Source: an uncultured Clostridia bacterium (GTDB lineage: Bacteria; Bacillota; Clostridia; Christensenellales; UBA1242). From it: 64,000 nucleotides of DNA. Within the stretch, counting starts at the first letter, position 1; each line of letters begins with the position of its first letter. The notes beneath the pieces are model-generated. The model was not told the DNA's origin. It saw nothing but the letters and a program-made list of their open reading frames with translations, and did not search any database. The position numbers were made by a program, and so were the translations under genes. Shown piece by piece: positions 37,301-64,000 of this stretch. The stretch is from contig CALVNR010000003.1 in the NCBI GenBank assembly GCA_944349905.1, positions 69,974 to 133,973 on the forward strand, in the 5' to 3' direction.

Positions 37301-40300
37301 TTTACGTTTACATAAACATCAAGAGTATTATCTTTTGAATTGTCTAAATAACTTTCTTTTTCGTTAATTTTAAAGTCAACAAGAGTAACTGTTGCAGTAG
37401 TTCTTTTGCTTTCTACTTGATTGTTGATTTCTCTTATTACTGTTGCATTCAAATAAATTCTGCCATCATCATTTTTAGATTCTGCCAAAATGCTTGCAGT
37501 CAATCTATATTTATAAATTCTTTTGTTTGTTGTAGAGTCAATGTTTTCACTGATTAAATAATAATCAATGCCACTTTCTGCTTCACTTACATCTATTCCT
37601 TCAACTCTTTGATCAAGGTTTACTACAATTTCAACTTCGGCACTTCCACCTTTTGCAAGTAATACAGAATTCTTGCCGTCAATTGTGATTGAAGGTTCTG
37701 ACAAATATGAAACAAATATATAAGTCTTAACATAATCAATTTGAGATGGTTGTCCAGTTTCTTCGTCAAAAACATAATAAGAAATTGTAATTTCAATAGT
37801 GCAATCTTGTGGTATAGCACCATTAATAGTTGTCAAGAAATACAAATTATTTTTATATAAATTATTGTTTGCGTCAGATGCAATATTGTTCTTGCTAGGA
37901 TAATATCTAAAACCTTCTTTATCTGTAAGTCTTTCAAAATTAATCTCACTTGTTGAAGTAAATTCATTATTTGTGCTTTTTGCAACTGGTGTAAAAGTAA
38001 CTCCGTTGCTTATAGGAGAATTTCCATAAGTAACTTCCAAGTAATCATAATAAGCATATTGTGGATTTACACTTACTTGCATGATAGAAGATGTTCCAGG
38101 TGCCAAAATACCAGTAGTAGTTGATGCAGTAGTGTATACTGTTTTGTTGCTCTTATAATTTGTGTTTGTAACCTTATAGTTAGACACATCAATTTTGGAA
38201 ATTTCTTGTTTGTTTATATTCAAAGTTAATTGAGAAGAAGTATATCCGCTCTTTGCAACAAATTGAACTTTATAAACTTCATCAGATTTTAACTTTTCTT
38301 TATAACTTTCATACACTGCAAAATTGAAATTAAAAGTTTTTAAATAAGAAGTTGTATTACTATAAGTAGAAGCTAATGGATTTGAAGTTATATCTATCAC
38401 TTCAATTCTTGCTTCTCCGTTCAAGCTATAAACAATACTATTACTATTGCTATCAGCATTAGCTACAAGTTTTGTTAAAACATCACCTGCACCTACAATA
38501 TAAATTTCAGGTACAACTTCATCGTTTTCGTCTGTTGTAAACAAATTTACACTTACTGTTGCAACAGTAGATGGAGAAATTGAAAGAGTATTTGCTGTCA
38601 TGCCAATTTCAATAGCACCATCTTTTGGATTTATACTAAATGCAACTTCTAATTCATCTTTAATTAATCGTTGCTCGTCTGAAAGAGTTCCATCAGTTTG
38701 AGAATTTGTAGAAATTAAAGGATAAATAGAAATATTTAATTTATTGTTACCATTAGAAATAGCATTGAACACATTTGAGCCCAATTGTTCAAACTTAACT
38801 TCACTTGTATCGTCCGAAACTTCATAATAAGCAAAGTTGTCAACCATATCTATTTTATATTCAACTGCATCGTTTCCAAGATAAACGCTTGTTGTCTTAA
38901 AATTAGCAACAAATTGTTTTGATTTTGTTTTTTGTAAATTTATTTCTGCATTTGTTTCGTGAGTATATTTTTCTATCTCGCCTATTGAATTTTGAGATAT
39001 AACTTCTATATCACTCACTGCTTTTTCAATTGATGCTTTAAGTTGTTTACTTAATGAAACATCTTGTTTTGAATAAAGATTTAAATCAAAAGTTGTATTT
39101 GTATATTGAACATACAACTCTGAACCAGTAACAAGCAAACTTGAAGAAGAAGATTCAAGCACAATATTTTTATTGTAAATACCCAACAAATCAGAAATAG
39201 AAATAGTATTCAATTGTTTATAGTCTTGCAACTGACTCGTTGTTAAAGAACCTGTATCATAACCTATTCCGTTGTAGAAAAATACTATTACTTCTCCGTT
39301 GGTAATTGCTTTGTAAAGATTTGTTGAATTATCTTCAATTACTGCACTTGACAACGAAATAGAATTTACTTTTTCGTCTTGATAGAATGCTATTAAATAA
39401 GCATTACCACCATTTATATTTTCATTAAAGCCATAACCACTTTCTATAAAAACGCTATTATTTGTTTTAACAATAGTAGAATTAAAATTAGATGTAGGAT
39501 TTTCATCCTCTCCACTAGTAGTAAAGTATGAAATATAACTATCTACAATAGATATTGTATAAGAAGAAATATTTCCAACAAAACCTTTTGCTACCTTTTG
39601 TTCATCTGTAAGGGTTTCGTCTTCATTTGCTTGACCTACAAAGTTGTCAACAAAAGCAAAACATTGTTCAAATGTAACATTTGCAAGAGTTTGTCCAACA
39701 AGTGCACCAACAGAAGTTCCTTGCAACCTATTGTTTGATGTAGCAGAATCTAAATTATAGTCATATACATATGCTTGGAAAATTGTTTGATTTGTTGAAG
39801 CTTGGCCTACAATACCACCAACAATATTTCCGACAAATGTGTTTAGTTTTGTTTTTTCTGTTTCTTTATCAGATTTTAAATTGTAAAATTCAACTCTTAC
39901 TCTTTTAATAATACCTTTGTTTAAACCAGCAACTCCACCAACAACGGTGCCTTCTCCATTAATTTGCAAACCTAAAACAGAACTGTTTTGTATTGTTCCA
40001 TTGTTTGTTCCACAAATACCACCAATATAAGGTTCACTTGATCGTATAAAACTGCTATATAAACCATAAGTGTCTATCGTAACATTGTCAATAGTACCTT
40101 CATTTGTGTTTGCTACAAAGCCAGAAGATTTTGTTATTTCTCCGTTGAATTTAATATTTCTTACAATACCACCTTCAACACCGGTCTTTGTAATAGTATC
40201 TGCAAAAGAATATCCCGTAAGAGTGATAGTTTCATCTCCATCTTTACCTTGCAAACCACCAGTGAAATTATCGTATAAGCAAGATTTTGCATCTAAGCTT

Positions 40301-43300
40301 AAAGTTAAATCGTTCATTACAGTATAAAATAGGTTTGCACCGTTTTCTCTAAAATCGTTTTCACTATAAACTCTATAAGCATAATCAAAACTTAAACCAT
40401 CAGCCACTAAAATATCATAGCAATGGAAGAACTCTTTAAAGTAAATATTTTCACCTTGATTATTGACAAAGAACGCATTTTCTACAAGCCATTGATAATT
40501 TGTTTGGCTTGTTCCAGATTTAATATTATTTAAATCATCTACCAATATTTGACCACTGACAAGTTCTTGATTGTCTTGATTTTGTTTGTAATATTGATAA
40601 TTTATGTATCCATTTATAACTGAATCGCTAGGGAAAAGATAAAGTTTACCACTTGTTCCTTCTGTTAATGCAGAAGACAAATCAATGCGTATCCTGTTTG
40701 TTGAAACTGCCTTTACATTTACAAAGTCTTTTCTTCCATTTTTGTCAACTACAAAATAGCTTACTCCACTATCTTTTGCATTTGTTGGAGAGGTTTTTAC
40801 AAGAAAACTATTAGACATTTGATTTGAATTGCCAACTTCAAAATAAATACCATTTTCATCAATTCCATCAACAATTAATTCTTCTACTCTATCTGCATTA
40901 ATAATAGTAAAATCTAAACTAACAATATAAGGTGCCGTTTTTAATCCTTCGCCTATAACATCAATTATTTCAAATTTATTATCTTTACTAGAAATAGAAT
41001 AAGACAATTGTAATGTTTGTTTATAATTTGGTTGATTGTTTGTTGATAAACCAATAATTGAAAGTTGCATTTGTTTTCCATTTATTCTATCAACATAAAT
41101 ATCAAAATAAATATTTTCAAATTCATTATTATTTGAATCAACCCACTTGATTTTCAAGTTTTCGTTAGAATTTATATCAGCATTTGATTGAATATAACCT
41201 TTGACATCTGTACCGCCAATATTTGCTTCAAAAACAAAATTTGAAATATCAACATAAGTAGCATCAGCCCTTGAATAAGAAATGGTTACAGTCTTAGAAA
41301 CTTCCTCAGCATTACCCACTGAATTTTTTGAATAAATTACAAAACTTTTATCTGATGAAGGTTCAACACTTAACTGACTTATTGCTTGATAAGATTCAAT
41401 GAGCAAAACTTTATATAAAGTTACTTGGTTTCCCTTATCATTTATCCCTTGGTAAGAGAAAATCACATAAGTGTAACCATTACCTTTTGTTTCAATAACA
41501 TCATAAGTAGAATTAATAGAAACGACACTACTATTTCCTTTGACATTAACATCATTGATTATTCCAATTTTGCCATCTGAGCTATTAAATCTTTCTAAAA
41601 ATGCAGTAAGCTGAGCATCGTAATCTTCATTTTCATCAAATGTAAAATCTAGATATTTTACCCCAATTGTTGCCAACGCAGAAATATTATTTAAAGTCTT
41701 ATTAAAAATATGTGAAACAGGAATAGTTTTCCCATTTTTAATCATCAAAACAGAATCAGAAATTTGACTGCTTGATTGTATAATTTCACCTGCTTGACCT
41801 TCTATTGTTTCACTTACAAACAAATCATTGTCTTCACCTTTCATGGTAATATCATTTGTTTCATTTGAAACAGAAATAGATGCATCCGTCAAAGGATAAA
41901 CTATATTAAAATAAATTGGTTCACTTTTGGCACCATTTTCATGTTCAAAAATAAAATAAGTTTCGTTGCTTGTAATTCCAACATATTCAGGATTTAAAGT
42001 AAAATCAATAGAGAAAATTACATTGCCATTATCAATAGATTTAAAACTAGGATTGCTTATTTGAATGTAAGGCTTTGGATAACTTGAATTTGAAACAATT
42101 ATGCCGTCAACACTTGATTGTCCTTTTAAAGTAAAATTAATAGTTTTAGTATTAACAGAACTGCTGTTGATAAAAATTTCATCTATTTCATTAACAAATT
42201 CTATTTTGTCTGAAGATTTTACAAGCATAACATTTTTTAATTCAACAGAAACATTTGGATTATCAACTGATTCAAATACAATATTTACTCCTTCAAAAGT
42301 TCCATAATCAATATTACCTTCTTGCTCTTCCAAAAATTTTTCATTTGCTTTAATATAAATTTCATGGATTAAATTTGAAATCTGAGTGCTAGAAATGTTA
42401 TCTGAAACAAAAGCATTTGCTTCTCCAACCCAGTTAAAATTCACTTTTGAATAGACACCATTTGATTTGGTATAAATTTCAACAAAATTTTCTTCACCCA
42501 AACGATATTGTTCTGTGGAAACATAAATTTTTATTTCACCACTGACATCTAGCACAGTATCAGGTGTAAGAGAAACTTTGTAAAGTTGACCAAATCCAGA
42601 ATTTGAAGAATATTGAGAATATATTTTTTGCTGAATCTTTGTTGCGTCAGAATCCCCCTTCATAATGTTTATCGCATTAATTTGTTCTTTTGCTTCAACA
42701 ATCAAATTTCCCAAATTTAAATCATTTGTATCTATTTTGTAATCAAATTCCTTATACCCAATTTCAAAAGAAATATAATATGAAGAATTTACTTTAATTG
42801 AATTGCCTTCCTCGTCTTTTAAATCTTCGTTGGCATAAACAATAAATTCATATCCATTTTCAGAAGAAACAACCAAATCGTTGCAAATTTCACCTTTTTT
42901 GTTTCTTACAACTGGTGTGATTTCAAGATTATCAAACCCTTCAACCAAAATATAACCAACATTTTCTCCATTTTCACCAATGTTAGGAATTATTTTTAAA
43001 GTTAAAGTTTTTACTCCATTTTCATCGGCCACTGCATTAGATAAAAATTGATAGTCTTGATTTTTTGAGTTTCTAACACCAAAATCAATATCGTCAGTTG
43101 TTATCTTTTCAATGCAAGTAAGGTCAACAGTAGCACTAACACCTAAATGAGTTGTTGCGACCAAAGAAATTGTAGATGATTGTGCCGTAGAAAAATTTTC
43201 AGGTAGAGTTAATTTATTTCCACTTATTTGTGCACCATTAAATTCTTGTGTGCCAGTGGCTTCAAAAGTCCAAACGACATCTTTACGATTGCTTGATGCT

Positions 43301-43776
43301 GGTTCAAAAGTAAAGAAATTGTCAGCAATTAAGTCAACAGTTCCGCCAACGATTGCAAATCTATTGCTTTTATTTTGCACATCTTCATTTTTTAAATACA
43401 TGTTTGTAACTTCACTATAAATTTCAATGTTTATGTATTTTGCTTCTCCCCCTTGTTCGGCAGTCAAAACAAGTTGAGTGTTTCCTTCATTTAACCCTTC
43501 AATTACAACTTCGCCTTTGCCGTCGTCTAGATAATTTACATCATTAACTTTTGCAATGCCATTATTTGTAAAATAAGGAACTTGAATAGTTTTATCATCA
43601 GAACCTGTTACTGCAAAAACAACAGTAGCAGTTGGCTGTTCATCTTTGCTATTGAGTTGAATGGATATATTTTGTGTTTCCACTTCTAATTTTACTTTTG
43701 GAGCGCCACAAGCATAAAGTATGCTTGCTCCAAGCATAACGAAGATTCCTAAAAGTCCAACGATAAACTTTTTCAT
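25339..43776 (-). CDS. Giant (6145 aa) predicted surface lipoprotein with Ig-like modules and multiple GLUG-type repeat blocks
   Basis: Single uninterrupted 18.4-kb ORF with SD AAGGAGGA. Signal peptide with lipobox MKKFIVGLLGIFVMLGASILYAC (Cys23). Big_2-like segments (GNTQLVLTAEQGG, SPTNAKDSGVSYFVVD). Many repeats such as IGGICGTNNGTIQNSSV, VAGFVLNNNGNITNSRV, ASGFVYRNEGYVENCYS, AGGIVGYNQSS..VSNCYNAG and FDGNGHTIHIKSF. Confidence 0.9.
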   Translation of the reverse strand: MKKFIVGLLGIFVMLGASILYACGAPKVKLEVETQNISIQLNSKDEQPTATVVFAVTGSDDKTIQVPYFTNNGIAKVNDVNYLDDGKGEVVIEGLNEGNTQLVLTAEQGGEAKYINIEIYSEVTNMYLKNEDVQNKSNRFAIVGGTVDLIADNFFTFEPASSNRKDVVWTFEATGTQEFNGAQISGNKLTLPENFSTAQSSTISLVATTHLGVSATVDLTCIEKITTDDIDFGVRNSKNQDYQFLSNAVADENGVKTLTLKIIPNIGENGENVGYILVEGFDNLEITPVVRNKKGEICNDLVVSSENGYEFIVYANEDLKDEEGNSIKVNSSYYISFEIGYKEFDYKIDTNDLNLGNLIVEAKEQINAINIMKGDSDATKIQQKIYSQYSSNSGFGQLYKVSLTPDTVLDVSGEIKIYVSTEQYRLGEENFVEIYTKSNGVYSKVNFNWVGEANAFVSDNISSTQISNLIHEIYIKANEKFLEEQEGNIDYGTFEGVNIVFESVDNPNVSVELKNVMLVKSSDKIEFVNEIDEIFINSSSVNTKTINFTLKGQSSVDGIIVSNSSYPKPYIQISNPSFKSIDNGNVIFSIDFTLNPEYVGITSNETYFIFEHENGAKSEPIYFNIVYPLTDASISVSNETNDITMKGEDNDLFVSETIEGQAGEIIQSSSQISDSVLMIKNGKTIPVSHIFNKTLNNISALATIGVKYLDFTFDENEDYDAQLTAFLERFNSSDGKIGIINDVNVKGNSSVVSINSTYDVIETKGNGYTYVIFSYQGINDKGNQVTLYKVLLIESYQAISQLSVEPSSDKSFVIYSKNSVGNAEEVSKTVTISYSRADATYVDISNFVFEANIGGTDVKGYIQSNADINSNENLKIKWVDSNNNEFENIYFDIYVDRINGKQMQLSIIGLSTNNQPNYKQTLQLSYSISSKDNKFEIIDVIGEGLKTAPYIVSLDFTIINADRVEELIVDGIDENGIYFEVGNSNQMSNSFLVKTSPTNAKDSGVSYFVVDKNGRKDFVNVKAVSTNRIRIDLSSALTEGTSGKLYLFPSDSVINGYINYQYYKQNQDNQELVSGQILVDDLNNIKSGTSQTNYQWLVENAFFVNNQGENIYFKEFFHCYDILVADGLSFDYAYRVYSENDFRENGANLFYTVMNDLTLSLDAKSCLYDNFTGGLQGKDGDETITLTGYSFADTITKTGVEGGIVRNIKFNGEITKSSGFVANTNEGTIDNVTIDTYGLYSSFIRSSEPYIGGICGTNNGTIQNSSVLGLQINGEGTVVGGVAGLNKGIIKRVRVEFYNLKSDKETEKTKLNTFVGNIVGGIVGQASTNQTIFQAYVYDYNLDSATSNNRLQGTSVGALVGQTLANVTFEQCFAFVDNFVGQANEDETLTDEQKVAKGFVGNISSYTISIVDSYISYFTTSGEDENPTSNFNSTIVKTNNSVFIESGYGFNENINGGNAYLIAFYQDEKVNSISLSSAVIEDNSTNLYKAITNGEVIVFFYNGIGYDTGSLTTSQLQDYKQLNTISISDLLGIYNKNIVLESSSSSLLVTGSELYVQYTNTTFDLNLYSKQDVSLSKQLKASIEKAVSDIEVISQNSIGEIEKYTHETNAEINLQKTKSKQFVANFKTTSVYLGNDAVEYKIDMVDNFAYYEVSDDTSEVKFEQLGSNVFNAISNGNNKLNISIYPLISTNSQTDGTLSDEQRLIKDELEVAFSINPKDGAIEIGMTANTLSISPSTVATVSVNLFTTDENDEVVPEIYIVGAGDVLTKLVANADSNSNSIVYSLNGEARIEVIDITSNPLASTYSNTTSYLKTFNFNFAVYESYKEKLKSDEVYKVQFVAKSGYTSSQLTLNINKQEISKIDVSNYKVTNTNYKSNKTVYTTASTTTGILAPGTSSIMQVSVNPQYAYYDYLEVTYGNSPISNGVTFTPVAKSTNNEFTSTSEINFERLTDKEGFRYYPSKNNIASDANNNLYKNNLYFLTTINGAIPQDCTIEITISYYVFDEETGQPSQIDYVKTYIFVSYLSEPSITIDGKNSVLLAKGGSAEVEIVVNLDQRVEGIDVSEAESGIDYYLISENIDSTTNKRIYKYRLTASILAESKNDDGRIYLNATVIREINNQVESKRTTATVTLVDFKINEKESYLDNSKDNTLDVYVNVNQVLSYNYVFDPEELVYDNNDKDSTDAYKYIMDQRNIFEQNQYYPQIESDGSLSEGSKDSYLINVRKNSGLNTTYSEIPLIDRIYYVVGDNMFVPVTAGNVDSPFNISVIDGKINIFANTKTEATRQIMIRTYVTINGEENKYDQYYTLRAVVYSDKDLPLTIDNSEEFLQLSSSEENTAHDYILMNDIVLENYTPFNTNFISSFDGNGHTIHIKSFDVESQSGVLNLALFNNVTENTLLKNVRVNLYNGGRISVNVNDFSEINIAGFAIENNGIITNSEVVSYYTDKYSQLNDSMKTESTVKISGQSGIVVTYTQGNTTKVNMQEGSSWKSNVAGFVLNNNGNITNSRVGGDKIIELGQVTQSVGLINAKYINLETFNIVAQGQVAGFVLQNQSSVAASYVKNLAMENNSMTEREEKAYASGFVGINNGSIITSYVEGVKQSTSLPNDIYARLGSEIKSNLCVVTGFVLTNSADANIKDCYSNIKISSIDNSNPVYLASGFVYRNEGYVENCYSASQIENQKFYQMNFSGISAEGDLLANGKYVNCYYYNQEYSEEDSSTGASTENDFDTNVLMVPDPSNADYFYGFAIASFGNDDGIWYMDSTSIEEGRETLKLIEPDMLTISYRYKQELSSEIGSYILPYGSILLEGEQINTTLGSKINPIIIKSAEEFVEATGSSSSTPIQNQYNDKAIFGSYRLVDNIDMRAFNAQTITLPSTQRAFSGNLYGNGFTINNLSLTYNGSNLSYGLFKSIEIYTELRDADNPRIINLNLDVSSNLFAPDVIYVGTLAGYIKDALLINIDINYSNNAQVQGKNFAGSVAGLIANSTIIKNIEVTNPNIHAVKLPSTETETFFDLPRVIDYRTVLNNLNYNYTFTGNDSIANYVANYSYAGGVAGYVDIFNSTSINSYFEYNENQEFNIINVKVDGIVKIIGQVAGGLFGLTAQQTAIQDVGIVVSGSMNQNSSHILTTKDFAGGVIGQSFGYISKIFAEHEENVQKDIEDYIALYYLENKDVERGILDLFMPEDSDLRKYDQKAIGGLIGYVGSGLLEIGYSKLNVISTTVDSAGGIIGQTDLRYTRSYLVDNNKVAVGQYTRFLLNEVYSVGDVRASKNGESKNSGGMIGTISNSNDRIAFLASNAINFFTNINYDTGEKYSDTEIGNKVYQFVGGAGTDVDLPTSVSFWTARKEGATGEEAAKAVASVGYVQDYKFGNNGTVNINLYKDWKNSSSTDSADDSTYMVEGIYTYTSGTIGYQATQKVFLNSGVWSVENWAHAADRIFPEIKYSLADPSIIYLDSYASSITRVLTAMRQNPTITVIVRGLKENSENEYADIDLTPYLSNYEIAGFGGSIISSNEYQVNENNQSRQVRLILNNSLLKSTSPGFSITNTHIKYDSTTAINGGIISVSTIEGASIDGLKIYLESGVTFNITENSLNAGLIAPSLYSTQINSLYIDTAEVPGNALTVRFSDDFKENINEDVNVNVGLISGQAIQDSETSVMYVRNVFISTPEDTQNLISFDENTKNRINNANVGLYFGLIEKESPNENGRPKSDFRLEINTIENASMSVYAKKGLNAGGYVGSSSNLNNFSVGSSSTLNSNISIVLNENCKNANIGGIFGNLTDGSEISLNAYNEYASTNGSINVTVKSDETNNIEIVKANIGGIIGYSKKQTSISNFNVGVNIGKKISLTSENREQAIGGLIGHNESKTSINSVKIGNHNNNGINLTVGENTPIKVGSAVGYSSGLISSENTNGYILSDLDITILNPQSSTRSTGNTSPYHVGGLVGYYSYANDESANLTSSSAYTGNIKFELSSNSKNSIFAGGIFGYVNGSNFTISNTVFGGKIIVETPNSNNVYAGGTVGYINAEKTTQFNINYAYNYGDVFIDYKNKDNTLSNYYFGGIIGNINGNNKAVLSNCYSAVTNHNARLASSGSSTTNAIIGGGSIKGDNVYYNSAVCLAFDTQATDIGYNANSIKGYSKDENEETDIGYNSSSDKGYSKDENEETGIFIIGKIKGLNQSLSEFATWLKETENKNWHDNISKLNPSSEYLTEGKTDGNEFDYDIKYYTADVLLNASNLETLTNVAIVGNFVDIDLTSNSNIIEKAVVSSISGYSSISGVNLIINMSSDSATNNVGGLVDQMSKNSIIYGVGVNGSMSIGGTASISMGGIVGQMTGGLIAESYTNLDMIYRAADGGTISAIANYANGNNAYIDYTYATGSVVTYIDANMYAFASGTTSLNISNSYTIAKLDWNDYTSENTSPSGTIGVFSGASTTNSYFDTNGVNYNGLTDTNTSEFLEGGSLFKYNNWVKDIDFNYGYPTRGFVYLKQSSWAERNSGDSTAKEKPITYDDCITTYTYTKVLNGEVPSSTKGYSYMIPNAGILAKITDITANNFVLMYDIDLSNTEYNNEWVSLSQKDKNEKELGFAGVELDGQDKTIVGLNTSLFKTLSGTVRNLRLTEISSSTAALANEISNGTVSNMTLEGTINIEKYVEHAGALANTITGGNIDTVTSIDTVTSMVKIDSTGNIGAIAGSVSGEVNINFCSNYGPLNTTGNAAGGIVGQIASGSTTIIDYCFNGSSVLSGYTNTEDSEDNGYYAGGIVGYNQSSSMTVSNCYNAGMIKAGNKNNTSMSYAAGIVAKSVELNNNTYKISDCYNEGPIEALGENPEIKFKIENINRVDEKIYKNITYTYDPKLGTIPAIENIDDLKIQVVQESKPNVSANYISNINANNVNYNENVEVVRNGGACKKGTVYYELNYQNNQEVYIKNYESELLQYYDPTTTGNYWELKYWKKVYDGVGAIAGTEYEMVLKIRPEVTEQAIKKDDTGYFCILQSNYLGIPVVFADYQKLNIFSAIITNTYEESPFWEYDYIIRTYGKNANAKSAFDLFLYDKTDSNLSLEEAVLEKINTGLEVARKDDLSLSKNDFSPSNSNEDDILTVKINNTSYYLADKYSAAFDSSTFEYSWTTTIDGLEDTNIENYNITEGATIKYGENNISNIEDKIDIDVQKNGDNAVTVTLTYISNVELDSPTLTATINYRNEQAVNFVEIKESPYIYIDEDSFAIDLDNVILGEENQTNLESSILQSYKEDGKLQVGENTYDNIIKFASGSNYYYFVYDTTNHQLMYYFNANYNNEQVNIKNQATSVYDFILSMPKSFTASREETASVALTFNNETNVAYSAKNEITKSSSYYGHEITFSDFTKEGSEMITSYNYYYNGSQDAIIGILNTENTMLISISKDIERFSLLDTTLLKAPYFAYFNGDFVYSNFLIENVKKFGEDENATSFVITLKSNTAEYFSSKMVNYYFQLKGEIINSDSANIVYDPNFQFDLNTKVSKTKNNITYITTYSNYAISKNYSHQLNGGENNDLLYYNRDLFINGVTSTATATYNTVDTVSITNNNNFAVVYSYKDSQNQEIVGVLDAKATINLSNISDFKVHTTISDPIISDDRIEIVYENETILYNLNLVIKFSEENQLIIDWENSSLYEITSENAIEFNDSYKSNFNISSFADNFYLYLNVNSWDNILKIYKTNPEITDSTDLNLSIQGDLNYYYEGEYLSSNNINSDFYVNNSNLEWDKIFRKDNESDPKIVTIFKNYSEFELKEIKTCSTSWENTSSVTGSHVESAKYDIIMLNDIFITTAKKLKIDYNISGNGYSVIITGNENTQAIFNEIENDKFLKEMNIAGTTNSATLLSQESSPILVGINIFGSILNYNSTTYSISTIDLIRYKQNTEKSDFLGLSTTNGKNVNIFAVLHSIENNTSEYSLLDENYQLKIFYSGKQGNIIINNNFNYYGLIIASNGNNSDKDGNSITINSKADMTNSMLKTGDGFNGNYTQGSSLTGASYGGKVGKLLTEDGTEMNKTNLKIIDSIVGNNGGLIEKNWNDYSIGDIWTTGEAWGGKWTSPMGVTYKDVRTVVCTPTIQNTYYFFIFANRHQSGGNILDYNLGEIDDTARIDYAARDEVLNQFVNKFSYLWLMADGTPLHKAPQPIS
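29761..29796 (-). repeat. In-frame 18-bp tandem duplication inside the giant gene
   Basis: tgtaacagtatcaatact / tgtaacagtatcaatatt encodes IDTVTS-IDTVTS (about aa 4661-4672). Confidence 0.9.
31291..31410 (-). repeat. In-frame 60-bp tandem duplication inside the giant gene
   Basis: Two 60-bp units (31291-31350 and 31351-31410) differ at 4 positions. They encode TDIGYNANSIKGYSKDENEE / TDIGYNSSSDKGYSKDENEE (about aa 4123-4162). Confidence 0.9.
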
Positions 43777-57814: not shown

Positions 57815-57973
57815 AAATTTCGCAAAAAAACACTTTATAATAAGATATAATATTACACGATAATAAACGGCATTTTGCAAAAATTTGGAACAAATTCGTG
57901 ACAAATTCGTAGACATTGCCAATTTTTTAATGTTTTTAATAAAAAAATAAACAATTTTAATTGAAAAAATTTG

Positions 57974-58093: not shown

Positions 58094-58117
58094 AAGTCCC
58101 TTTAGTAATGGAATTTA

Positions 58118-58162
58118 TGGTGCTCCACGAGGGATTCTAACCCCCAACCCTTGGTTCCGAAG
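58118..58162 (-). pseudogene. 3' half of a tRNA-Arg(UCG)-like gene (anticodon loop to CCA); the 5' half is absent
   Basis: Minus strand reads CUUCGGA ACCAA GGGUU GGGGG UUAGAAU CCCUC GUGGAGC A CCA. These are the anticodon loop (U33, anticodon UCG, G37), variable loop, T-arm, acceptor 3' strand, discriminator and CCA. Sequence 5' of position 32 cannot pair with the anticodon-stem or acceptor strands. The T-loop has A at the normally invariant C56. Confidence 0.6.
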
Positions 58163-58320
58163 GGGCGACCTGAAAATGCCAAGAGTTCGACTTTTCGTAT
58201 CATATTTTACCATAAAATATCATATCAAAAATCTCTCAATCCCTTTATTTTTCAGCATTTTCGCCACTTCTTCTTATCAAACAATACTATACAATACTTC
58301 CACCTAAAAATACAACACAA

Positions 58321-58369
58321 ACACCCCGTTTGCAAAAGTCTTGCATTTTTCTTGCAAAAATTTGTAACA
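58321..58369 (+). repeat. 49-bp direct repeat, copy A (degenerate promoter/operator-like)
   Basis: acaccccgtttgcaaaagtcttgcatttttcttgcaaaaatttgtaaca matches copy B at 44 of 49 positions. It contains three TTGCA(A/T) elements. Confidence 0.85.
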
Positions 58370-58456: not shown

Positions 58457-59230
58457 TTATGTTTTTTTTGTTATTGTCAATATATGCGTTGATAATCCAA
58501 GCATTTCTTTTTTTTCACATACTCTTAATTGCCAATCTTTTATAATTTCAAATTCCTCCTCATCAAGTTGGTTTGAATGTTCCTTTAAAATTTCAAATAA
58601 CCCATCAGTAGAAATATCTTTAATATGTTTTAATCCTGCGTCTTTAACATATTTTTTAAATTCATCAATAAAATATGATTTATAAATATCTTCAGAAAAA
58701 GATTTAAAATAACCTATATCGTTAAATAAATTTTTACATTTTTTTAGATTTTTATTTATAAGTCCATATCTAATTATAATTGCTGTAGGTGAAAGAAAGG
58801 TAAATAAAACAAATCCTCCTTTTTTACAAATTCTAACACTTTCACTTATGGCTTTCTTAATATCTTTTTCTTCAAATAAATGAGAGAGAACTCCATTTAC
58901 AAACACAATATCGAAACTTTCATTTTTAATTGATTTTAAGTTTATTATATCAGCTATAACTGTTTTTATATTTTGTTTCTTTGGAAAAGACGAAAAATAT
59001 TTGCCAAATATGTCCACTGCGGTGATTTCAATGTTTCTGTTTGATAATTCTGGAGTAAAAGCTTTAATACCTGAACCAATTTCGATAACTTTATCTCCTT
59101 CTTTTATATATTTGTTCAAATATAAACATGTTATATATCTTTCAAGTTTTGCATAATTTGAAGGATTTTCAAATTTTTCATCGTTTCTATTTTTATAAAA
59201 ATTATAAAGATTATCAACTCTTTTGTTCAT
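58457..59230 (-). CDS. Class I SAM-dependent methyltransferase
   Basis: 257 aa. Motif I is KVIEIGSGIKAF and the post-I acidic residue is in ITAVDI. FDIVFVNGVLSHL is also present. Substrate unknown. Confidence 0.8.
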   Translation of the reverse strand: MNKRVDNLYNFYKNRNDEKFENPSNYAKLERYITCLYLNKYIKEGDKVIEIGSGIKAFTPELSNRNIEITAVDIFGKYFSSFPKKQNIKTVIADIINLKSIKNESFDIVFVNGVLSHLFEEKDIKKAISESVRICKKGGFVLFTFLSPTAIIIRYGLINKNLKKCKNLFNDIGYFKSFSEDIYKSYFIDEFKKYVKDAGLKHIKDISTDGLFEILKEHSNQLDEEEFEIIKDWQLRVCEKKEMLGLSTHILTITKKT

Positions 59231-59362
59231 AACTTTTCTCCTATCAATCCGATTATATCACACTATATTAAATAATTTACAAAATTTTCATTATTTTTTA
59301 ATATTGTGTCAATTTTTTTATTATAAAAATAGATATACAAAAATTACAAAATAAAATACAAA

Positions 59363-59411
59363 ACACCCCATTTGCAAAAATCTTGCATTTTTCTTGTAAA
59401 AATTTATAATA
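59363..59411 (+). repeat. 49-bp direct repeat, copy B; doubles as the likely promoter of the terS operon
   Basis: acaccccatttgcaaaaatcttgcatttttcttgtaaaaatttataata. It contains TTGCAT (59383-59388), 16 nt, TATAAT (59405-59410). Confidence 0.8.
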
Positions 59412-59569: not shown

Positions 59570-59609
59570 TAGGTTGTTCACTTTTTGTGGTGGGCAACCT
59601 ATTTGTTTG
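59570..59609 (+). promoter_or_regulatory. Stem-loop plus T-rich tract just upstream of the terS RBS (possible attenuator)
   Basis: taggttg (59570-59576) pairs with caaccta (59595-59601) across an 18-nt loop, followed by tttgtttg. Confidence 0.3.
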
Positions 59610-59620
59610 AAAGGAAAAAT

Positions 59621-60046
59621 ATGGATAAATTTGAAAAGGAAATGTTAGAGAATAATAGAAAGGCTGCGATTGCAACACAAGAAAACAACGATAAGATTTT
59701 AACCATTCCAAGTTATTTAACAAAGGAAGAAAAGGTTGCATATAGCGAGATTGTGCAAACCTTAAAAGAAAGCATCCATTACAGGCTATCTTCAACTGAT
59801 GCTGAACTAATTTGGCAATATTGTCAGATCAAAATTATGCGTGATAGAGCTTGGCGAGAATACAACAAAAACCCAGATAGATATATTCGTATAGTTACAG
59901 GAATTTGTAGTGATGGAAAAACGCCAAAAGTTATGGTTAAAGAAAATGAACACTATAAAACATTAATAGATTGCAATAAACAACTCGAAAAGATTTTAAA
60001 AGATTTGAGATTGACACCAGAAGCAAGAAAGAAAAGATATTTTTAG
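59621..60046 (+). CDS. terS: Phage terminase small subunit, P27 family
   Basis: 141 aa from the ATG at 59621 (SD AAAGGA). The pattern IPSYLTKEEKVAYSEIVQTL...DAELIWQYCQ...LKDLRLTPEARKK matches the P27-family layout. Confidence 0.75.
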   Translation: MDKFEKEMLENNRKAAIATQENNDKILTIPSYLTKEEKVAYSEIVQTLKESIHYRLSSTDAELIWQYCQIKIMRDRAWREYNKNPDRYIRIVTGICSDGKTPKVMVKENEHYKTLIDCNKQLEKILKDLRLTPEARKKRYF

Positions 60047-60098: not shown

Positions 60099-60488
60099 AT
60101 GTATACAGGTTATTTTGGAAAAATGAAAAGTTATCCTAAGGATAAAGAATATAGATATGTTTCTATTGCAAGGTTTAATAAATTTTGGTCAGGAGAAGAA
60201 TATAAAAAGTTGACACCACCTGCAAGTATTATAAAAATTGAAGATAAAGAACTTTATACAAAGTTGTATTATGAGCAAGTATTAAACAACTTAAATCCGC
60301 AAGAAGTGTATAATGAACTTGGAGATAATGCTGTTTTGTTATGTTATGAAAAATATGCAGATATTGAACAAGGAAAAACATTTTGTCATAGGCATATGGT
60401 GGCTAAATGGCTAGAAGAAAAACTAGGAGTTGAGGTAAAAGAATTAGAAAATGAGAATAAAGACAATAGTCAACAATTACATTTCTAA
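60099..60488 (+). CDS. DUF488-like small protein (phage-associated type)
   Basis: 129 aa. MYTGYFGK...YVSIAR...VLLCYEK......FCHRHMVAKWLEEKLGVEVKEL resembles the DUF488 LLC.E...CHR signature. SD GAGG. Confidence 0.5.
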   Translation: MYTGYFGKMKSYPKDKEYRYVSIARFNKFWSGEEYKKLTPPASIIKIEDKELYTKLYYEQVLNNLNPQEVYNELGDNAVLLCYEKYADIEQGKTFCHRHMVAKWLEEKLGVEVKELENENKDNSQQLHF

Positions 60489-61668
60489 CTTTATTAATGA
60501 AAATAAATTTAGAAATATTTATATCTATGGGTCTAAGTACTTACAGATAGAAAAATTAATAAGTAAATCAACATCGTCATCAATAATTGGTGACGATGTT
60601 GATTTTTGTAACACATTACTTGCAGAATATTATTTAAATAGGGATAAAAAAATTATTCTTCCAGACCATGTGTGTAAATCTTTACGAATAGAAAATCAAG
60701 ATGTTTATTCAAGTGTAGAGAAAGTTGCATTAGCAATTATTGGAAATAAAATCCTTCATAAAGAAAGCAATTATCACTCCACAAGGTTAAATGATAATAT
60801 AATTAAAAATTTAGATTTATTGGTTAAACAAATAGTTCAAAAAGTTGAAGGAGAAGACATAAAATTAACAGATTTTAAGCAAATGAGTTTAAAAGATTTT
60901 ACAAAATTGCCAGAAAAAGAAGATTTGTTGATAATTGACAATAGAGATTCTAACAATTTAAAGAAAAGTTTGCATGAACAATTACTTGATATTGGTACAA
61001 GTTTCATAATTTTATCTAAAAAGGATATCAATAATTTGGGGGAATATAAAGTATTGCATAGTAAAACTATTAAGATATTCTCAAATTGCATAGAAAACAA
61101 TATGTTAATATCCAAACAAAACAACAAAACAGATAAACAATTGTCTTTTGATACTATTGAAAATGATAATATTGAACATGTTGCCTTAAAGCAATTAAAT
61201 CATACTCAGTTCAATTCTTTAAGACAAAAATATTTAAGCAAACAAATTCACTTTACCGGCACTCCTAAAGTTTGTTATGGATTATTTAGCGGAAACAAAA
61301 TATTTGGAGTCTTTGGTTTAACAAATGATTATAATCATAAACCACCAAAGGATATTGAGCATCCGTCAGTTTATTTGATGACAGATTTTTGTGTTAAAAG
61401 TTCAATAAATAAGTTAAGCAAACTTGTTTTATATTGTATTTTAAGTAAAGATGTGAAAATGTTGGCTGAAAGATTAGTTAGCAAAGAAGTTAAAAGTATA
61501 TTTACTAATGTATTTACGAAACATAAAAGTTCTATAAAATATAGAGGTTTGTTTGATTTACATACTAGAAAAGAATTAGAAGATAAATCATTTAACTTAA
61601 CATATATTTCAAAATTTGGTAATTGGACATTAAAGGAGGCTGTAAGCTTATGGAAACAGAAATTATAA
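60451..61668 (+). CDS. Hypothetical 405-aa protein (C-terminal half faintly acyltransferase/Mom-like)
   Basis: The ORF overlaps both neighbours, by 38 nt upstream and 19 nt downstream. The C-terminal YGLFSGNKIFGVFGLTN...VYLMTDFCV...KLSKLVLYCIL pattern is only suggestive. No family recognised. Confidence 0.6.
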   Translation: MRIKTIVNNYISNFINENKFRNIYIYGSKYLQIEKLISKSTSSSIIGDDVDFCNTLLAEYYLNRDKKIILPDHVCKSLRIENQDVYSSVEKVALAIIGNKILHKESNYHSTRLNDNIIKNLDLLVKQIVQKVEGEDIKLTDFKQMSLKDFTKLPEKEDLLIIDNRDSNNLKKSLHEQLLDIGTSFIILSKKDINNLGEYKVLHSKTIKIFSNCIENNMLISKQNNKTDKQLSFDTIENDNIEHVALKQLNHTQFNSLRQKYLSKQIHFTGTPKVCYGLFSGNKIFGVFGLTNDYNHKPPKDIEHPSVYLMTDFCVKSSINKLSKLVLYCILSKDVKMLAERLVSKEVKSIFTNVFTKHKSSIKYRGLFDLHTRKELEDKSFNLTYISKFGNWTLKEAVSLWKQKL

Positions 61669-62522
61669 AAATAGACCCAAGAAAAATAAAACTTTTAGAA
61701 GTCAATGCAAGATATATGAAACCTGAAGAATATGAAAAGTTGGTTTCAAATATAAAGAAAGATGGTAAACTAACTTCAGTCCCATTTTGCTATTACAATG
61801 AAGATAATAAAATTGAGGTGCTTTCTGGCAACCACAGAGTAATGGCTTCTATTGAGGCCGGACTAAATGAAATACAAGTAATGCTTTGTAAAGATAAACT
61901 TTCAAAAGATAAAGCATTAGCAATTCAATTAAGCCACAATTCTATAGTAGGACAAGATGATGAGGAATTGTTAAGAAAATTATATGCAGAACTCGAAAGT
62001 TTGGAATTTAAAGAATATTCAGGACTGACAGATGATTTCATAAATTTTTGCAAGCAAACTGAAAAAGATTTTAAAATACCTAATTTACAGTATCAAGCAA
62101 TTAATTTACTATTCTTACCTAAGGAAATAAATGATATCAAAAATTGTTTAGAAGATTTAGGCGAACTGTTAAATAGCTTTACAATTCTAGCAAACATAAA
62201 GGATTATGATAACTATTTGGAAACTTCATCTTTAATTTCTAAATGTTTAAATATCAAAAATCCATCCACCACTTTTTTATCAATATTAGAACTCTCAAAA
62301 CAAAATATCAACAATTTAAAGAAAATAGCTTTTGATAATGAAAATATAGATTATACTCCTATTTCTACGATATTAGGAAGAAGTGATATAAATAAAGAAT
62401 ACGCTATTACAATAGATAATGCATTAAATAAAATGGTAGATAAAAGAATTATTAAGAAAAATGAAAAAGGGAAAGGTTTATATCTTTTAGCACAAGAATA
62501 TTTAAAAAACATTAAATCGTAG
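61650..62522 (+). CDS. ParB/Srx-fold (ParB-like nuclease) domain protein
   Basis: I prefer the start at METEIIKID (ATG 61650), preceded by AAGGAGG. The N-terminal region IDPRKIKLLEVNARYM...VLSGNHRVMASIEAGL matches the ParB N-terminal domain, and the C-terminal ~190 aa are unknown. Confidence 0.75.
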   Translation: METEIIKIDPRKIKLLEVNARYMKPEEYEKLVSNIKKDGKLTSVPFCYYNEDNKIEVLSGNHRVMASIEAGLNEIQVMLCKDKLSKDKALAIQLSHNSIVGQDDEELLRKLYAELESLEFKEYSGLTDDFINFCKQTEKDFKIPNLQYQAINLLFLPKEINDIKNCLEDLGELLNSFTILANIKDYDNYLETSSLISKCLNIKNPSTTFLSILELSKQNINNLKKIAFDNENIDYTPISTILGRSDINKEYAITIDNALNKMVDKRIIKKNEKGKGLYLLAQEYLKNIKS

Positions 62523-62610
62523 AAAAGACAAAATGCTTTTTACAAAAATAATTGCATAAATTTACTTTTTTTAGTTAACAATTTAACTAAAATCAACATA
62601 TAATAAAATG

Positions 62611-62683: not shown

Positions 62684-64000
62684 ATGTTAGTTAATTTCTC
62701 CGTTAAAAATTATAAATCTTATAAAGATGAAGCAAATTTTACTATGAGAAAGGCTCCTAGAATAAGAGATTTATCTTATAGCCTACTTAAAGAAAAAATA
62801 AAAAGTAAGAACTTTGAAGTTTTATCATCTTCTGTATTATATGGCCCAAACGCATCCGGCAAAAGCAATATTCTTGACGCGATGAACACATTAAAACATA
62901 TTATATTGCGAGGTTCCATTAAAAATGCTCCACCAATAGCAGGAACTCCCAATGCTCAATCAAATCTAGAGTTAATACCTTTTATTTTTGGTGCAGAAAA
63001 TCCAATAAATTTTAAAATTGAATTTATTTATAATAATTTTCACTATTTATATGAATTATCTATTAATGTAGGAGAATTTCTGTCAAGCAGTCAATTTAGA
63101 GAAATTGAATACGAAAAACTTGATATTAATTTTGTCAATATATTTGAAAGAGAGAGAAATAATCTAAAAAGACTAAGTATATTAAAAGATTATAAAGATG
63201 ATTTTATAGATGATATTGATACGGATAAAATAAAATCAATGTTTAACGAAACTTTGGTTGAAGACTCTATTTTTCTTACTAACGGTTTTAAAAATATTAG
63301 CAAAAAGTTTAGCCAAGATATAATTAAATGGTTTGAAAGTGATTTAATAATTATTCCTAAGTTAGAAGGAACATTTAGCTTACCTATATTTGAAGATAAA
63401 AAAGTTTACATTGATACTTTTGTTAATAATATTGCAAAACAGTCAGGAATTAGCGGTTCTGATATTGCTTATATTAAAGATGAAAGCTCGAAAACTGTTA
63501 CCGTTTCATTAATTCAAAAAGATAAAGACTCAAGCAAAGGCACATTCATACCTGTAAATGTTGTAGAATCCTATGGAACAGCAAGAATAATTCAGTTAAT
63601 GCCAATTATTTTAAGCGTTTTACAAAACGGCTCAGTATTAGCGGTTGACGAACTGGATGGGGCTTTACATCCAATGCTAATGATGAATATAATTAGTATT
63701 TTTCATAATGATGAAATAAATATTAACAATGCTCAATTAATTTTTAACACACACAACCCTATATATTTAAACAATTCTATATTTAGAAGGGATGAAATTA
63801 AATTTGTTGAAAAAGATTTAAATACTCATAGTAGTGTCCTTTATGCATTGTCTGACTTTGGTACAAAAGGTGAAAATTCCGTAAGAAATACAACAGATTA
63901 TATAAAAAATTATTTTATGAATAAGTATGGGGCTATTTTAGACATTGATTATACTGATATCTTCAAAGATGCTATGAGAGGTGTAATAAATGAAAAAAGC
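62684..64000 (+). CDS. ABC/SMC-like ATPase of the AAA_21 (COG1106-like) type; 3' end beyond the window
   Basis: Not in the track because it is edge-truncated. Begins MLVNFSVKNYKSYKDEANF. Walker A is GPNASGKSN, Walker B/D-loop is LAVDELDGALHP and the H-loop is IFNTHNPIYL. Also has RRDEIKFVEKD....SVLYALSDF and a YFMNKYGAI tail. Confidence 0.8.
   Translation, partial: MLVNFSVKNYKSYKDEANFTMRKAPRIRDLSYSLLKEKIKSKNFEVLSSSVLYGPNASGKSNILDAMNTLKHIILRGSIKNAPPIAGTPNAQSNLELIPFIFGAENPINFKIEFIYNNFHYLYELSINVGEFLSSSQFREIEYEKLDINFVNIFERERNNLKRLSILKDYKDDFIDDIDTDKIKSMFNETLVEDSIFLTNGFKNISKKFSQDIIKWFESDLIIIPKLEGTFSLPIFEDKKVYIDTFVNNIAKQSGISGSDIAYIKDESSKTVTVSLIQKDKDSSKGTFIPVNVVESYGTARIIQLMPIILSVLQNGSVLAVDELDGALHPMLMMNIISIFHNDEININNAQLIFNTHNPIYLNNSIFRRDEIKFVEKDLNTHSSVLYALSDFGTKGENSVRNTTDYIKNYFMNKYGAILDIDYTDIFKDAMRGVINEKS

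Follow-up and report, generated by a model that had tools for sequence, protein, structure and literature searches.

The closest described relative of the locus considered here is a phage module whose parts have been given dedicated Pfam families, namely DUF488-N3a (PF22751), DAM-like-phage1 and DAM-like-phage2 (PF22555 and PF22556) and GNAT-phage-like (PF22559), and the partner proteins of this module are matched by these families throughout. The four families reportedly stem from work by Burroughs and Aravind in 2023, and literature searches found no paper naming them; since dedicated families exist, the association has already been described computationally. The locus itself is a trio of overlapping open reading frames (ORF1, ORF2 and ORF3) at positions 60099 to 62522 of a 64,000-nucleotide stretch, hereafter the window, from contig CALVNR010000003.1 of an uncultured Clostridia bacterium. 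It belongs to a kind of module that is known computationally and uncharacterised experimentally, and the window copy is a variant of it, in which methyltransferase motif IV is deleted, the genes are tied to terS (the small terminase gene), the location is outside phages, and a conserved palindrome lies inside the cassette. The first-pass annotation of the window, which had been made from its letters alone, knew of no described system with this trio, a statement that the named families overturn. In our assessment there is about an even chance that the trio represents a reduced form of a nucleic-acid (DNA)-modification module with three components, one that is widespread, borne by phages and co-expressed with packaging genes.

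The window locus shares with the phage module the ParB neighbour, a DUF488 partner of the C...CHR type, a GNAT core scoring above the Pfam cut-off, and a terminase-proximal position in mobile elements. It differs in that the window clade is short, with ORF1 and the N-terminal domain of ORF2 scoring under the Pfam cut-offs, and in that its overlapping genes, in the order terS-DUF488-ORF2-ParB, occupy chromosomal cassettes or islands. For the phage module as a whole, the function is predicted only.

Several other systems bear comparison with the trio. The phage thymine dioxygenases (5mYOX), which oxidise bases, require a ParB-like protein without a DNA-binding domain and are encoded near terminases (PMC13229309, PNAS 2026). 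The likeness would lie in a ParB-fold protein serving as the obligatory partner of a post-replicative base-modifying enzyme, often close to terminase genes, whereas the enzyme in that case is an iron- and 2-oxoglutarate-dependent dioxygenase rather than a methylase-like/GNAT-like fusion, and no DUF488 protein takes part. It has also been reported that ParB-CTPase folds fused to DUF488 and a helix-turn-helix in archaea bind cytidine triphosphate, and that one fused to an acetyltransferase binds guanosine triphosphate (bioRxiv 10.1101/2025.10.10.680097). Phage fusions of ParB with a DNA methyltransferase (phrog_498), which are often terminase-proximal, combine a ParB N-domain of the same type with a Rossmann methyltransferase fold; these are active methyltransferases with intact catalytic motifs, whereas in the present family the methylase-like domain is degenerate and it is the GNAT-like part that forms the conserved catalytic portion. 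Mom of phage Mu, which makes N6-carbamoylmethyl-adenine, resembles the module in being a phage late gene product with an acyltransferase-like fold, thought to modify adenine, and in an anti-restriction task of the kind proposed for the module, but has no Dam-like domain, ParB partner or DUF488 partner. The suggestion of the first-pass annotation that ORF2 is Mom-like did not hold, as the hhalign probability of ORF2 against Mu Mom is 0.2% and Mom has its own family, PF25680, which Mu Mom matches at 2.4e-75 and ORF2 does not match. A search of the systems listed in PADLOC 2.0 likewise assigned the trio to none of them, with no match for ORF2, a stray one for ORF3 (0.0048) and one to the candidate PDC-M45C for ORF1 (6e-5).

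The cassette and its proteins

The features of the cassette are as follows.

59622 to 60046, plus strand: terS, small terminase subunit of the P27 family, first gene of the cassette
60099 to 60488, plus strand: ORF1, 129 residues, divergent DUF488-N3a protein, probably of the rhodanese-phosphatase superfamily
60451 to 61668, plus strand: ORF2, 405 residues, Dam-like Rossmann domain plus phage GNAT-like domain
60451 to 61095, plus strand: N-terminal domain of ORF2 (residues 1-215), degenerate Dam-like class-I Rossmann methyltransferase fold
61177 to 61668, plus strand: C-terminal domain of ORF2 (residues 243-405), phage GNAT-like domain, the conserved catalytic core of the protein
60565 to 60605, no strand assigned: 41-bp near-perfect palindrome (inverted repeat I15) in ORF2 codons 39-52, with 20-nt arms that are 95% complementary
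61633 to 61639, plus strand: Shine-Dalgarno sequence AAGGAGG of ORF3, read from the sequence, within the 3' end of ORF2
61650 to 62522, plus strand: ORF3, 290 residues from ATG 61650 (299 residues from TTG 61623), ParB-fold protein

The reading frames, their coordinates on the plus strand in the ORF list of the window, and their overlaps, as put forward by the first-pass annotation, were all confirmed on the sequence: ORF1 and ORF2 share 38 nt, and ORF2 and ORF3 share 19 nt when ORF3 starts at ATG 61650. This ATG is placed 10 nt past AAGGAGG, and the position of the latter inside the 3' end of ORF2 supports translational coupling of the two genes. Homologous loci with about 50% protein identity (L001-3, L006-8 and L092-96, where L numbers denote related loci) repeat the lengths and overlaps of the trio, so that the arrangement is conserved and not due to chance.

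The terS product matches Pfam Terminase_4 at 5.5e-07 (30.3 bits, exceeding the cut-off of 24.7), phrog_83 at 3.1e-08 and TIGR01558 at 1.5e-08, the last being under the model cut-off, and its ATG at 59622, behind AAAGGA, suits the 138-141-residue homologues better than the listed TTG at 59585. The gap between terS and ORF1 is 52 nt. As no terminator-like site was found between terS and the end of ORF3, and as the gene following ORF3 has a strong promoter-like site of its own ahead of it at 62575-62604, the transcription unit probably comprises terS and the trio. Just upstream of the likely terS start, a 13-bp stem-loop with a T-run, terminator-like in appearance, occupies 59570-59601 and overlaps the TTG start; its role could be that of an attenuator, or it could mark where a transcript from upstream ends.

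Residues 243-404 of ORF2 match PF22559, "Phage GNAT-like domain", at 6e-40 (137.2 bits, cut-off 27), and Foldseek placed the modelled C-domain with GNAT acetyltransferases, including PaiA (1tiq, 3e-5) and others, which bears out the GNAT fold that the first-pass annotation had proposed for this segment. The AlphaFold (AF2) model, which was built from a 101-sequence alignment and has a predicted local distance difference test (pLDDT) score of 88, gives the N-domain a class-I methyltransferase Rossmann fold, for which Foldseek returned class-I methyltransferases, among them the N6-methyladenine transfer RNA (tRNA) methylase TrmM, and also Mcbe1. At the sequence level, the N-terminus of ORF2 scores E 0.0037 (17 bits, cut-off 27) against PF22555, "Phage DNA adenine methylase-like domain 1", a domain that is present in many window-clade relatives and in all long relatives of ORF2. 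Conservation is concentrated in the GNAT-like domain, where nearly all of the residues invariant in 101 homologues are found (G286, D312, K324, T352, K363-Y364-R365 and W401), and within the window clade the N-domain has 36-40% identity versus 63-69% for the C-domain. On inspection of the sequence, the loop between strand 4 and helix 3 of the GNAT-like domain, where canonical acetyl-CoA-dependent GNATs have their pyrophosphate-binding Q/R-x-x-G-x-G/A motif, reads KSSINKLSKL, with the invariant K324 and no glycine.

The methylase-like domain is variable in length and motif. Typical family members have 446-452 residues and those of the window clade about 404; 210 of the 261 family members carry (F/Y/A)PP(T/F)(Y/F/W) at the position of methyltransferase motif IV, and alignments show that this segment and about 30 residues with it are deleted in the window clade. 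Assignment of ORF2 as a Dam-type N6-adenine methyltransferase was accordingly rejected, the protein having neither DPPY nor FxGxG: it contains no (D/N/S)PP(Y/F), the residues after strand 4 are IDNRD, and motif I is YGSKY. Five relatives of ORF2 (P0343, P0357, P0375, P0384 and P0385) are interrupted by inteins exactly after SFPPFY (C...HN followed by T), an insertion point that marks the FPPxY motif as a conserved site. Some of these inteins bear HNH or LAGLIDADG-like homing endonucleases. NCBIfam holds no model for ORF1 or ORF2, and a PDB sequence search with the family profiles of both returned noise only.

The identity of ORF1 is seen at the level of its family. By itself, the protein reaches PF22751, "Active DUF488-N3 subclade", with E 0.019 (15.7 bits, under the cut-off of 27), and it matches phrog_2450 at 3.7e-22. 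When its profile was aligned by hhalign with the canonical DUF488 neighbours of ORF2 relatives, the match had a probability of 94.9% (E 4e-8) over LLCxE...CHR, and in a set of 72 partner proteins from related loci PF22751 was matched by 54 and DUF488 (PF04343) by 51, with C82, C96, H97 and R98 invariant in all 72. The family invariants of ORF1 are S22, I23, R25, W30, E84 and C96-H97-R98, and its conserved signatures read S22-I-x-R25, C82-x-E84 and C96-H97-R98. Through this family-level evidence ORF1 has the C...C-H-R pattern of a DUF488-N3a partner, and its first-pass label of DUF488-like was right. The AF2 model of ORF1 (pLDDT 84) had no significant match among PDB structures; its matches in BFVD, which were phage proteins first and then DUF4326 and tyrosine-phosphatase-like (PTP-like) domains, would fit a place in the rhodanese-phosphatase superfamily.

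ORF3 consists of a ParB/Srx-fold N-terminal domain (residues 1-130) and a C-terminal half that varies. It matches phrog_7405 at 8.7e-71 and other ParB-like PHROGs down to 1e-13, the ParB N-domain of the phage "DNA methyltransferase" phrog_498 at 1.8e-15, and Pfam ParB_N at 0.0046. The motifs N19-A-R21, S59-G-N-H-R63 and Q93-L-S-H-N97 are found in it, and across 73 homologues NAR, SGNHR and QLSHN(x)3G(x)DD are nearly invariant. A clean profile of the family aligns with the solved ParB nucleotide-binding domain 7bnk at 2.9e-4, laying SGNHR on the canonical GERR; the phosphate-binding Arg, Arg and Asn of canonical ParB are retained as R21, R63 and N97, and the hydrolytic Glu of GERR is replaced by Asn. 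Nucleotide binding by ORF3 is therefore predicted from these residues. As no HTH_ParB domain was matched in ORF3 by Pfam, no ParA is encoded in the locus and box II reads SGNHR, ORF3 was rejected as a ParB of the ParABS partition type, and the first-pass term "ParB-like" is correct as a description of the fold only.

Distribution and variants of the family

Relatives of ORF2 occur in 192 species-representative genomes, in Bacillota, Chloroflexota, Planctomycetota, Desulfobacterota, Nitrospirota, Bacteroidota, Actinomycetota and other phyla, and on at least 541 IMG/VR viral contigs, and they form 1432 clusters at 50% identity in the representative library. Gene neighbourhoods were counted by ORF and hidden Markov model analysis of fetched loci, in 62 genomic loci with at least 3 kb on each side and in 37 viral loci with full flanks. 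An ORF3-type ParB gene is adjacent on the same strand in all 62 genomic loci and in 36 of the 37 viral ones, and a DUF488-type gene lies on the same strand within 6 kb in 49/62 and 36/37, respectively, several further genomic loci having it on the opposite strand. The first-pass annotation had treated the trio as a functional unit on the strength of its overlaps; with these overlaps conserved and the ParB gene so constantly adjacent, this interpretation stands, and the very strong co-occurrence decisively contradicts the prospect, raised at the same time, that the genes might not travel together.

Where phages and prophages carry it, the module is placed with the replication genes on one side and the terminase on the other. 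A large terminase is the first sizeable gene downstream in 31 of 53 loci, and the remaining genes that recur nearby are those for portal, protease, primase and integrase. Isolated actinophages carry it as well, with the ORF2/ParB-type pair represented by gp29/gp30 in Gordonia phage Clawz and by gp74/gp75 in Mycobacterium phage Argie, and with DUF488-like genes upstream of the pair (gp24 in Clawz and gp68 in Argie). The module was also seen in prophages of the Bacillus group. Neobacillus niacini JJ211 (L011) provides an example of the long form.

Fusions join the same components in other ways. In P0088, Pfam domains identify a single protein made of ParB_N, DAM-like and GNAT-like parts. A second apparent fusion, a 732-aa ORF at L047, was not counted, as Pfam matched nothing in it and the frame, from a GC-rich genome, is probably spurious. 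The Bacteroidales counterpart of ORF2 is a protein of about 684 residues composed of Amidoligase_2, DAM-like-phage2 and GNAT-like domains, and is followed by ParB and an ATP-grasp enzyme (D-Ala-D-Ala-ligase-like), all upstream of the large terminase (L056 6447-10075 in a Muribaculaceae genome, and also L062 and L082). Genes for radical-SAM (S-adenosylmethionine) enzymes, glycosyltransferases and deoxycytidine monophosphate deaminases stand beside some cassettes. The meeting of three amide-bond-forming enzyme types in one neighbourhood suggests an amino-acid-like or acyl adduct, and the amidoligase and ATP-grasp additions of Bacteroidales point to an amide-linked one.

The short-clade cassette, its palindrome and its island

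In the short clade, in which ORF2 has about 404 residues, terS is found directly upstream of ORF1 in eight of nine distinct loci, and the order of terS and trio is seen in the window, L006, L007, L008, L092/93, L094 and L096. The first-pass suggestion that the trio might be satellite cargo was imprecise in this respect: the trio shares one operon with terS, in a conserved four-gene cassette, and is thus core to the element rather than carried by it. At L092 this cassette stands alone between fur/znuABC and trmD/rimM, and at L094 it comes after a small cI-like helix-turn-helix gene and is bordered by hrcA-grpE and hisS; neither locus shows an integrase. No short-clade member is found among the best 80 of the at least 541 viral matches. 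Together with the standalone chromosomal cassettes, this indicates that the short form is not a phage resident; it is a chromosomal or island cassette.

The palindrome lies within a part of ORF2 that is constrained at the codon level, synonymous codon identity being 0.82-0.92 over residues 27-53 vs 0.63 gene-wide. Its core, ACATCGTCAyCAAT/ATTGGTGrCGATGT, which includes the rare codons TCG and GGC, is kept in seven of eight short-clade ORF2 genes and disrupted in L008. It occurs once in the window and is absent from long-form genes. The RNA folding z-score is -7, and RNAalifold found invariance and G-U changes with no true covariation. For the short-clade cassette the palindrome is a candidate cis site, of the pac or parS kind, or else a hairpin in the RNA.

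In the window, the cassette belongs to an island of which the following genes flank it.

58457 to 59230, minus strand: class-I SAM methyltransferase, first island gene (Methyltransf_11 2e-13; PADLOC mad2 1.2e-12)
62684 to 64000, running off the window end: AbiL pair, an AAA_21 ATPase (PADLOC AbiLi 2.3e-73) and then RloB, behind the promoter-like site at 62575-62604

Islands in three other flanking contexts match the segment 58152-64000 at 99.9% identity, and "Candidatus Caccovivens faecavium" (Bacillota) has a protein identical to ORF1, which is found on 199 contigs. The left junction of the island falls within 58117-58156, the 99.9% identity beginning at 58152-58156, and just outside it lies a host-specific sequence on the minus strand that resembles the 3' end of a tRNA (T-arm, acceptor and CCA). 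As neither ARAGORN nor Rfam calls a tRNA or transfer-messenger RNA there, and no intact tRNA is present at the far end of related islands, this sequence is treated only as a 3' fragment. From the junction onward the island carries the minus-strand methyltransferase, terS and the trio, AbiLi and RloB, and then variable restriction-modification (R-M), GmrSD-HNH or T5orf172 genes; sister islands have an integrase, and the loci in which one is found are L088, L091 and L006. The methyltransferase at 58457-59230 is not conserved alongside the trio in other loci.

The island resembles satellites of the phage-inducible chromosomal island (PICI) type in being integrative, in having terS and, in the part seen, no terL or capsid genes, in its far-end integrase and defence cargo, and in a junction at a tRNA-like 3' fragment. 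It is unlike them in that no primase/replicase, capsid-remodelling or Ppi-like genes were seen in the part of the island examined, and in that some cassettes have no integrase.

Further observations concern the surroundings of the cassette. The AbiL pair recurs at L089 12586-14536, the island further carries T5orf172/ResIII and Eco57I/MmeI-type genes, and sister islands hold GmrSD-HNH, an EcoRI-type methylase and an integrase. Two copies of a 49-nt direct repeat, rich in TTGCAAAAAT motifs and with 92% identity between them, are located at 58319-58367 and 59361-59409, one on either side of the minus-strand methyltransferase gene and the second in the upstream region of terS; a third, partial copy is at 57875-57892, and the repeat could be an operator or promoter element. 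At L007 7168-12050 and L001 3137-4683, the terS-trio cassette is accompanied, in tandem or close by, by a different cassette in which a ParB_N-DUF4417 protein comes after terS, which suggests that such terS-plus-ParB mini-modules form a family in gut Clostridia. Elsewhere in the window, the minus strand at 25339-43776 holds one ORF of 6145 aa, and a 6072-aa gene lies near the trio in the related locus L001.

A proposed role in DNA modification and its alternatives

The first-pass annotation had left the role of the trio between DNA modification, anti-defence and defence, and the first of these is the best-supported reading. In the model that we infer, the module would be made together with the packaging proteins, and the ParB-fold protein would bind a nucleotide and then act as an obligatory activator or DNA-loading partner of ORF2, in the manner of the ParB-like partners of phage thymine dioxygenases. 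The methylase-like domain would present a base, most probably by an exocyclic amino group on adenine or cytosine, as the acceptor of an acyl or aminoacyl group delivered by the GNAT-like domain. A phosphoryl or thiol transfer, whether on the donor, on an intermediate or on the DNA itself, would fall to the DUF488 enzyme. Phage or island DNA modified in this way would be protected from restriction in the next host. Domain identities, gene linkage, fusions and genomic context are what the data show, while DNA as the substrate, the type of group transferred, the part played by each protein and the benefit belong to the model. For the short clade, from which the catalytic loop is deleted, base presentation would have to rest on the remaining methylase-like domain, on ParB or on TerS.

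It has to be noted that several observations weigh against this model. The window proteins' own scores for PF22555 and PF22751 are under the Pfam cut-offs. Motif IV of the methylase-like domain is never DPPY, varies across the family and is missing from the window copy, which makes the base-flipping role uncertain, above all for this copy, and inspection of the GNAT-like sequence showed no obvious Q/RxxGxG loop for coenzyme A. The short cassette sits among defence genes (AbiL, R-M and GmrSD) and is sometimes found without any other mobile-element gene, both of which would also fit a host-serving role. Finally, literature searches found no experimental study of any member, so that the chemistry is entirely inferred.

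A different model, which we regard as unlikely but as the best-surviving of the alternatives, is that of DNA-end processing at packaging, in which the module would act on the termini made by the terminase and not on internal bases. ParB would then be a nuclease or nucleoside triphosphatase, with the terminal phosphate left to DUF488 and the capping of the end to the GNAT-like domain, which would shield ends from exonucleases or help cos/pac handling. The module directly precedes terS/terL in most loci and comes after terS in the window, a position that such a model expects, and P27-family small terminases usually work with an accessory nuclease; the abstract of Burroughs and Aravind (2023) is also said to predict "DNA-end processing" for DUF488-clade enzymes. 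Proximity to the terminase is, however, shared by systems that act on internal bases, as in the ParB-methyltransferase fusions (phrog_498) and the ParB-dependent 5mYOX, and a Dam-like fold is a duplex base-flipping module. Furthermore, the addition of amidoligase and ATP-grasp enzymes speaks more for an elaborate adduct than for end repair, and ParB is coupled to ORF2 in 62/62 loci and not to any single terminase family.

The palindrome and the four-gene order allow a more far-reaching proposal for the short form, which we hold to be distinctly unlikely, namely that cassette and palindrome together are a minimal, self-contained parasite of phages. With the palindrome as recognition site, TerS or ParB would recruit the large terminase of a helper phage to package the flanking island or chromosome, while the trio would give that DNA an undescribed covalent mark, an acyl or aminoacyl group on a base or DNA end.

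The short clade may alternatively serve the host or island against phages, with a chromosomal TerS decoy and the trio diverting or spoiling phage packaging or DNA in a way that resembles PICI interference. This is improbable in our view, even though the island of the window has AbiLi/RloB, GmrSD-HNH and R-M genes of the EcoRI and Eco57I/MmeI types, the integrase-less cassettes of L092 and L094 sit between housekeeping genes, the cassette is under purifying selection (ORF1 being 70-78% identical across the clade), and ORF1 weakly matches PDC-M45C. Location in a defence island is guilt by association only, ORF2 lacks a PADLOC match, and the residence of the long form in phages, on the viral contigs and in isolated actinophages, favours a phage-serving role.

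We consider it quite improbable that the substrate is something other than DNA. In that case the GNAT-like domain would acylate a tRNA, a small molecule or a protein such as terminase, capsid or a host defence factor, and ParB and DUF488 would assist by handling nucleotides. Such a model would accommodate the poorly conserved methylase-like domain, with its catalytic loop gone in the window copy, and the atypical GNAT-like domain, and protein glutamine methylation by HemK/PrmC likewise uses a pocket of the PPY type. Against it, the neighbourhood offers no conserved candidate for a protein substrate, ParB folds are DNA-associated, and Dam-like folds and ParB-methyltransferase analogues, when found in a phage context, indicate DNA.

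An ordinary partition or replication function, in which a ParB centromere-binding protein is accompanied by accessory genes and which the first-pass annotation had named as a possible outcome, is scarcely credible: the ParB N-terminal fold of ORF3 and the palindrome inside the cassette would suit it, but ParA and HTH_ParB are absent, GERR is replaced by GNHR, and the ORF3-type gene has the GNAT-like enzyme as its constant partner and, in phage genomes, stands next to terminase genes.

If the preferred reading is correct and the module modifies DNA, it would rank among the most widespread uncharacterised phage DNA-modification systems, with more than 1400 clusters at 50% identity in many phyla. 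Its chemistry would likely be new, being based on GNAT-like transfer that is sometimes combined with amidoligase and ATP-grasp ligases, and it would provide a second enzyme class dependent on a ParB-fold activator. This would have consequences for restriction evasion, for artefacts in the sequencing of gut phage DNA and for DNA-labelling tools. As the family is present in cultivable systems (Clawz, Argie and Bacillus-group prophages), the question is directly testable. The terS-linked short form, for its part, could show how very small elements exploit phage packaging, and should it prove to be a minimal parasite, it would combine a new DNA modification with a new, integrase-free way of hitch-hiking on phage packaging.

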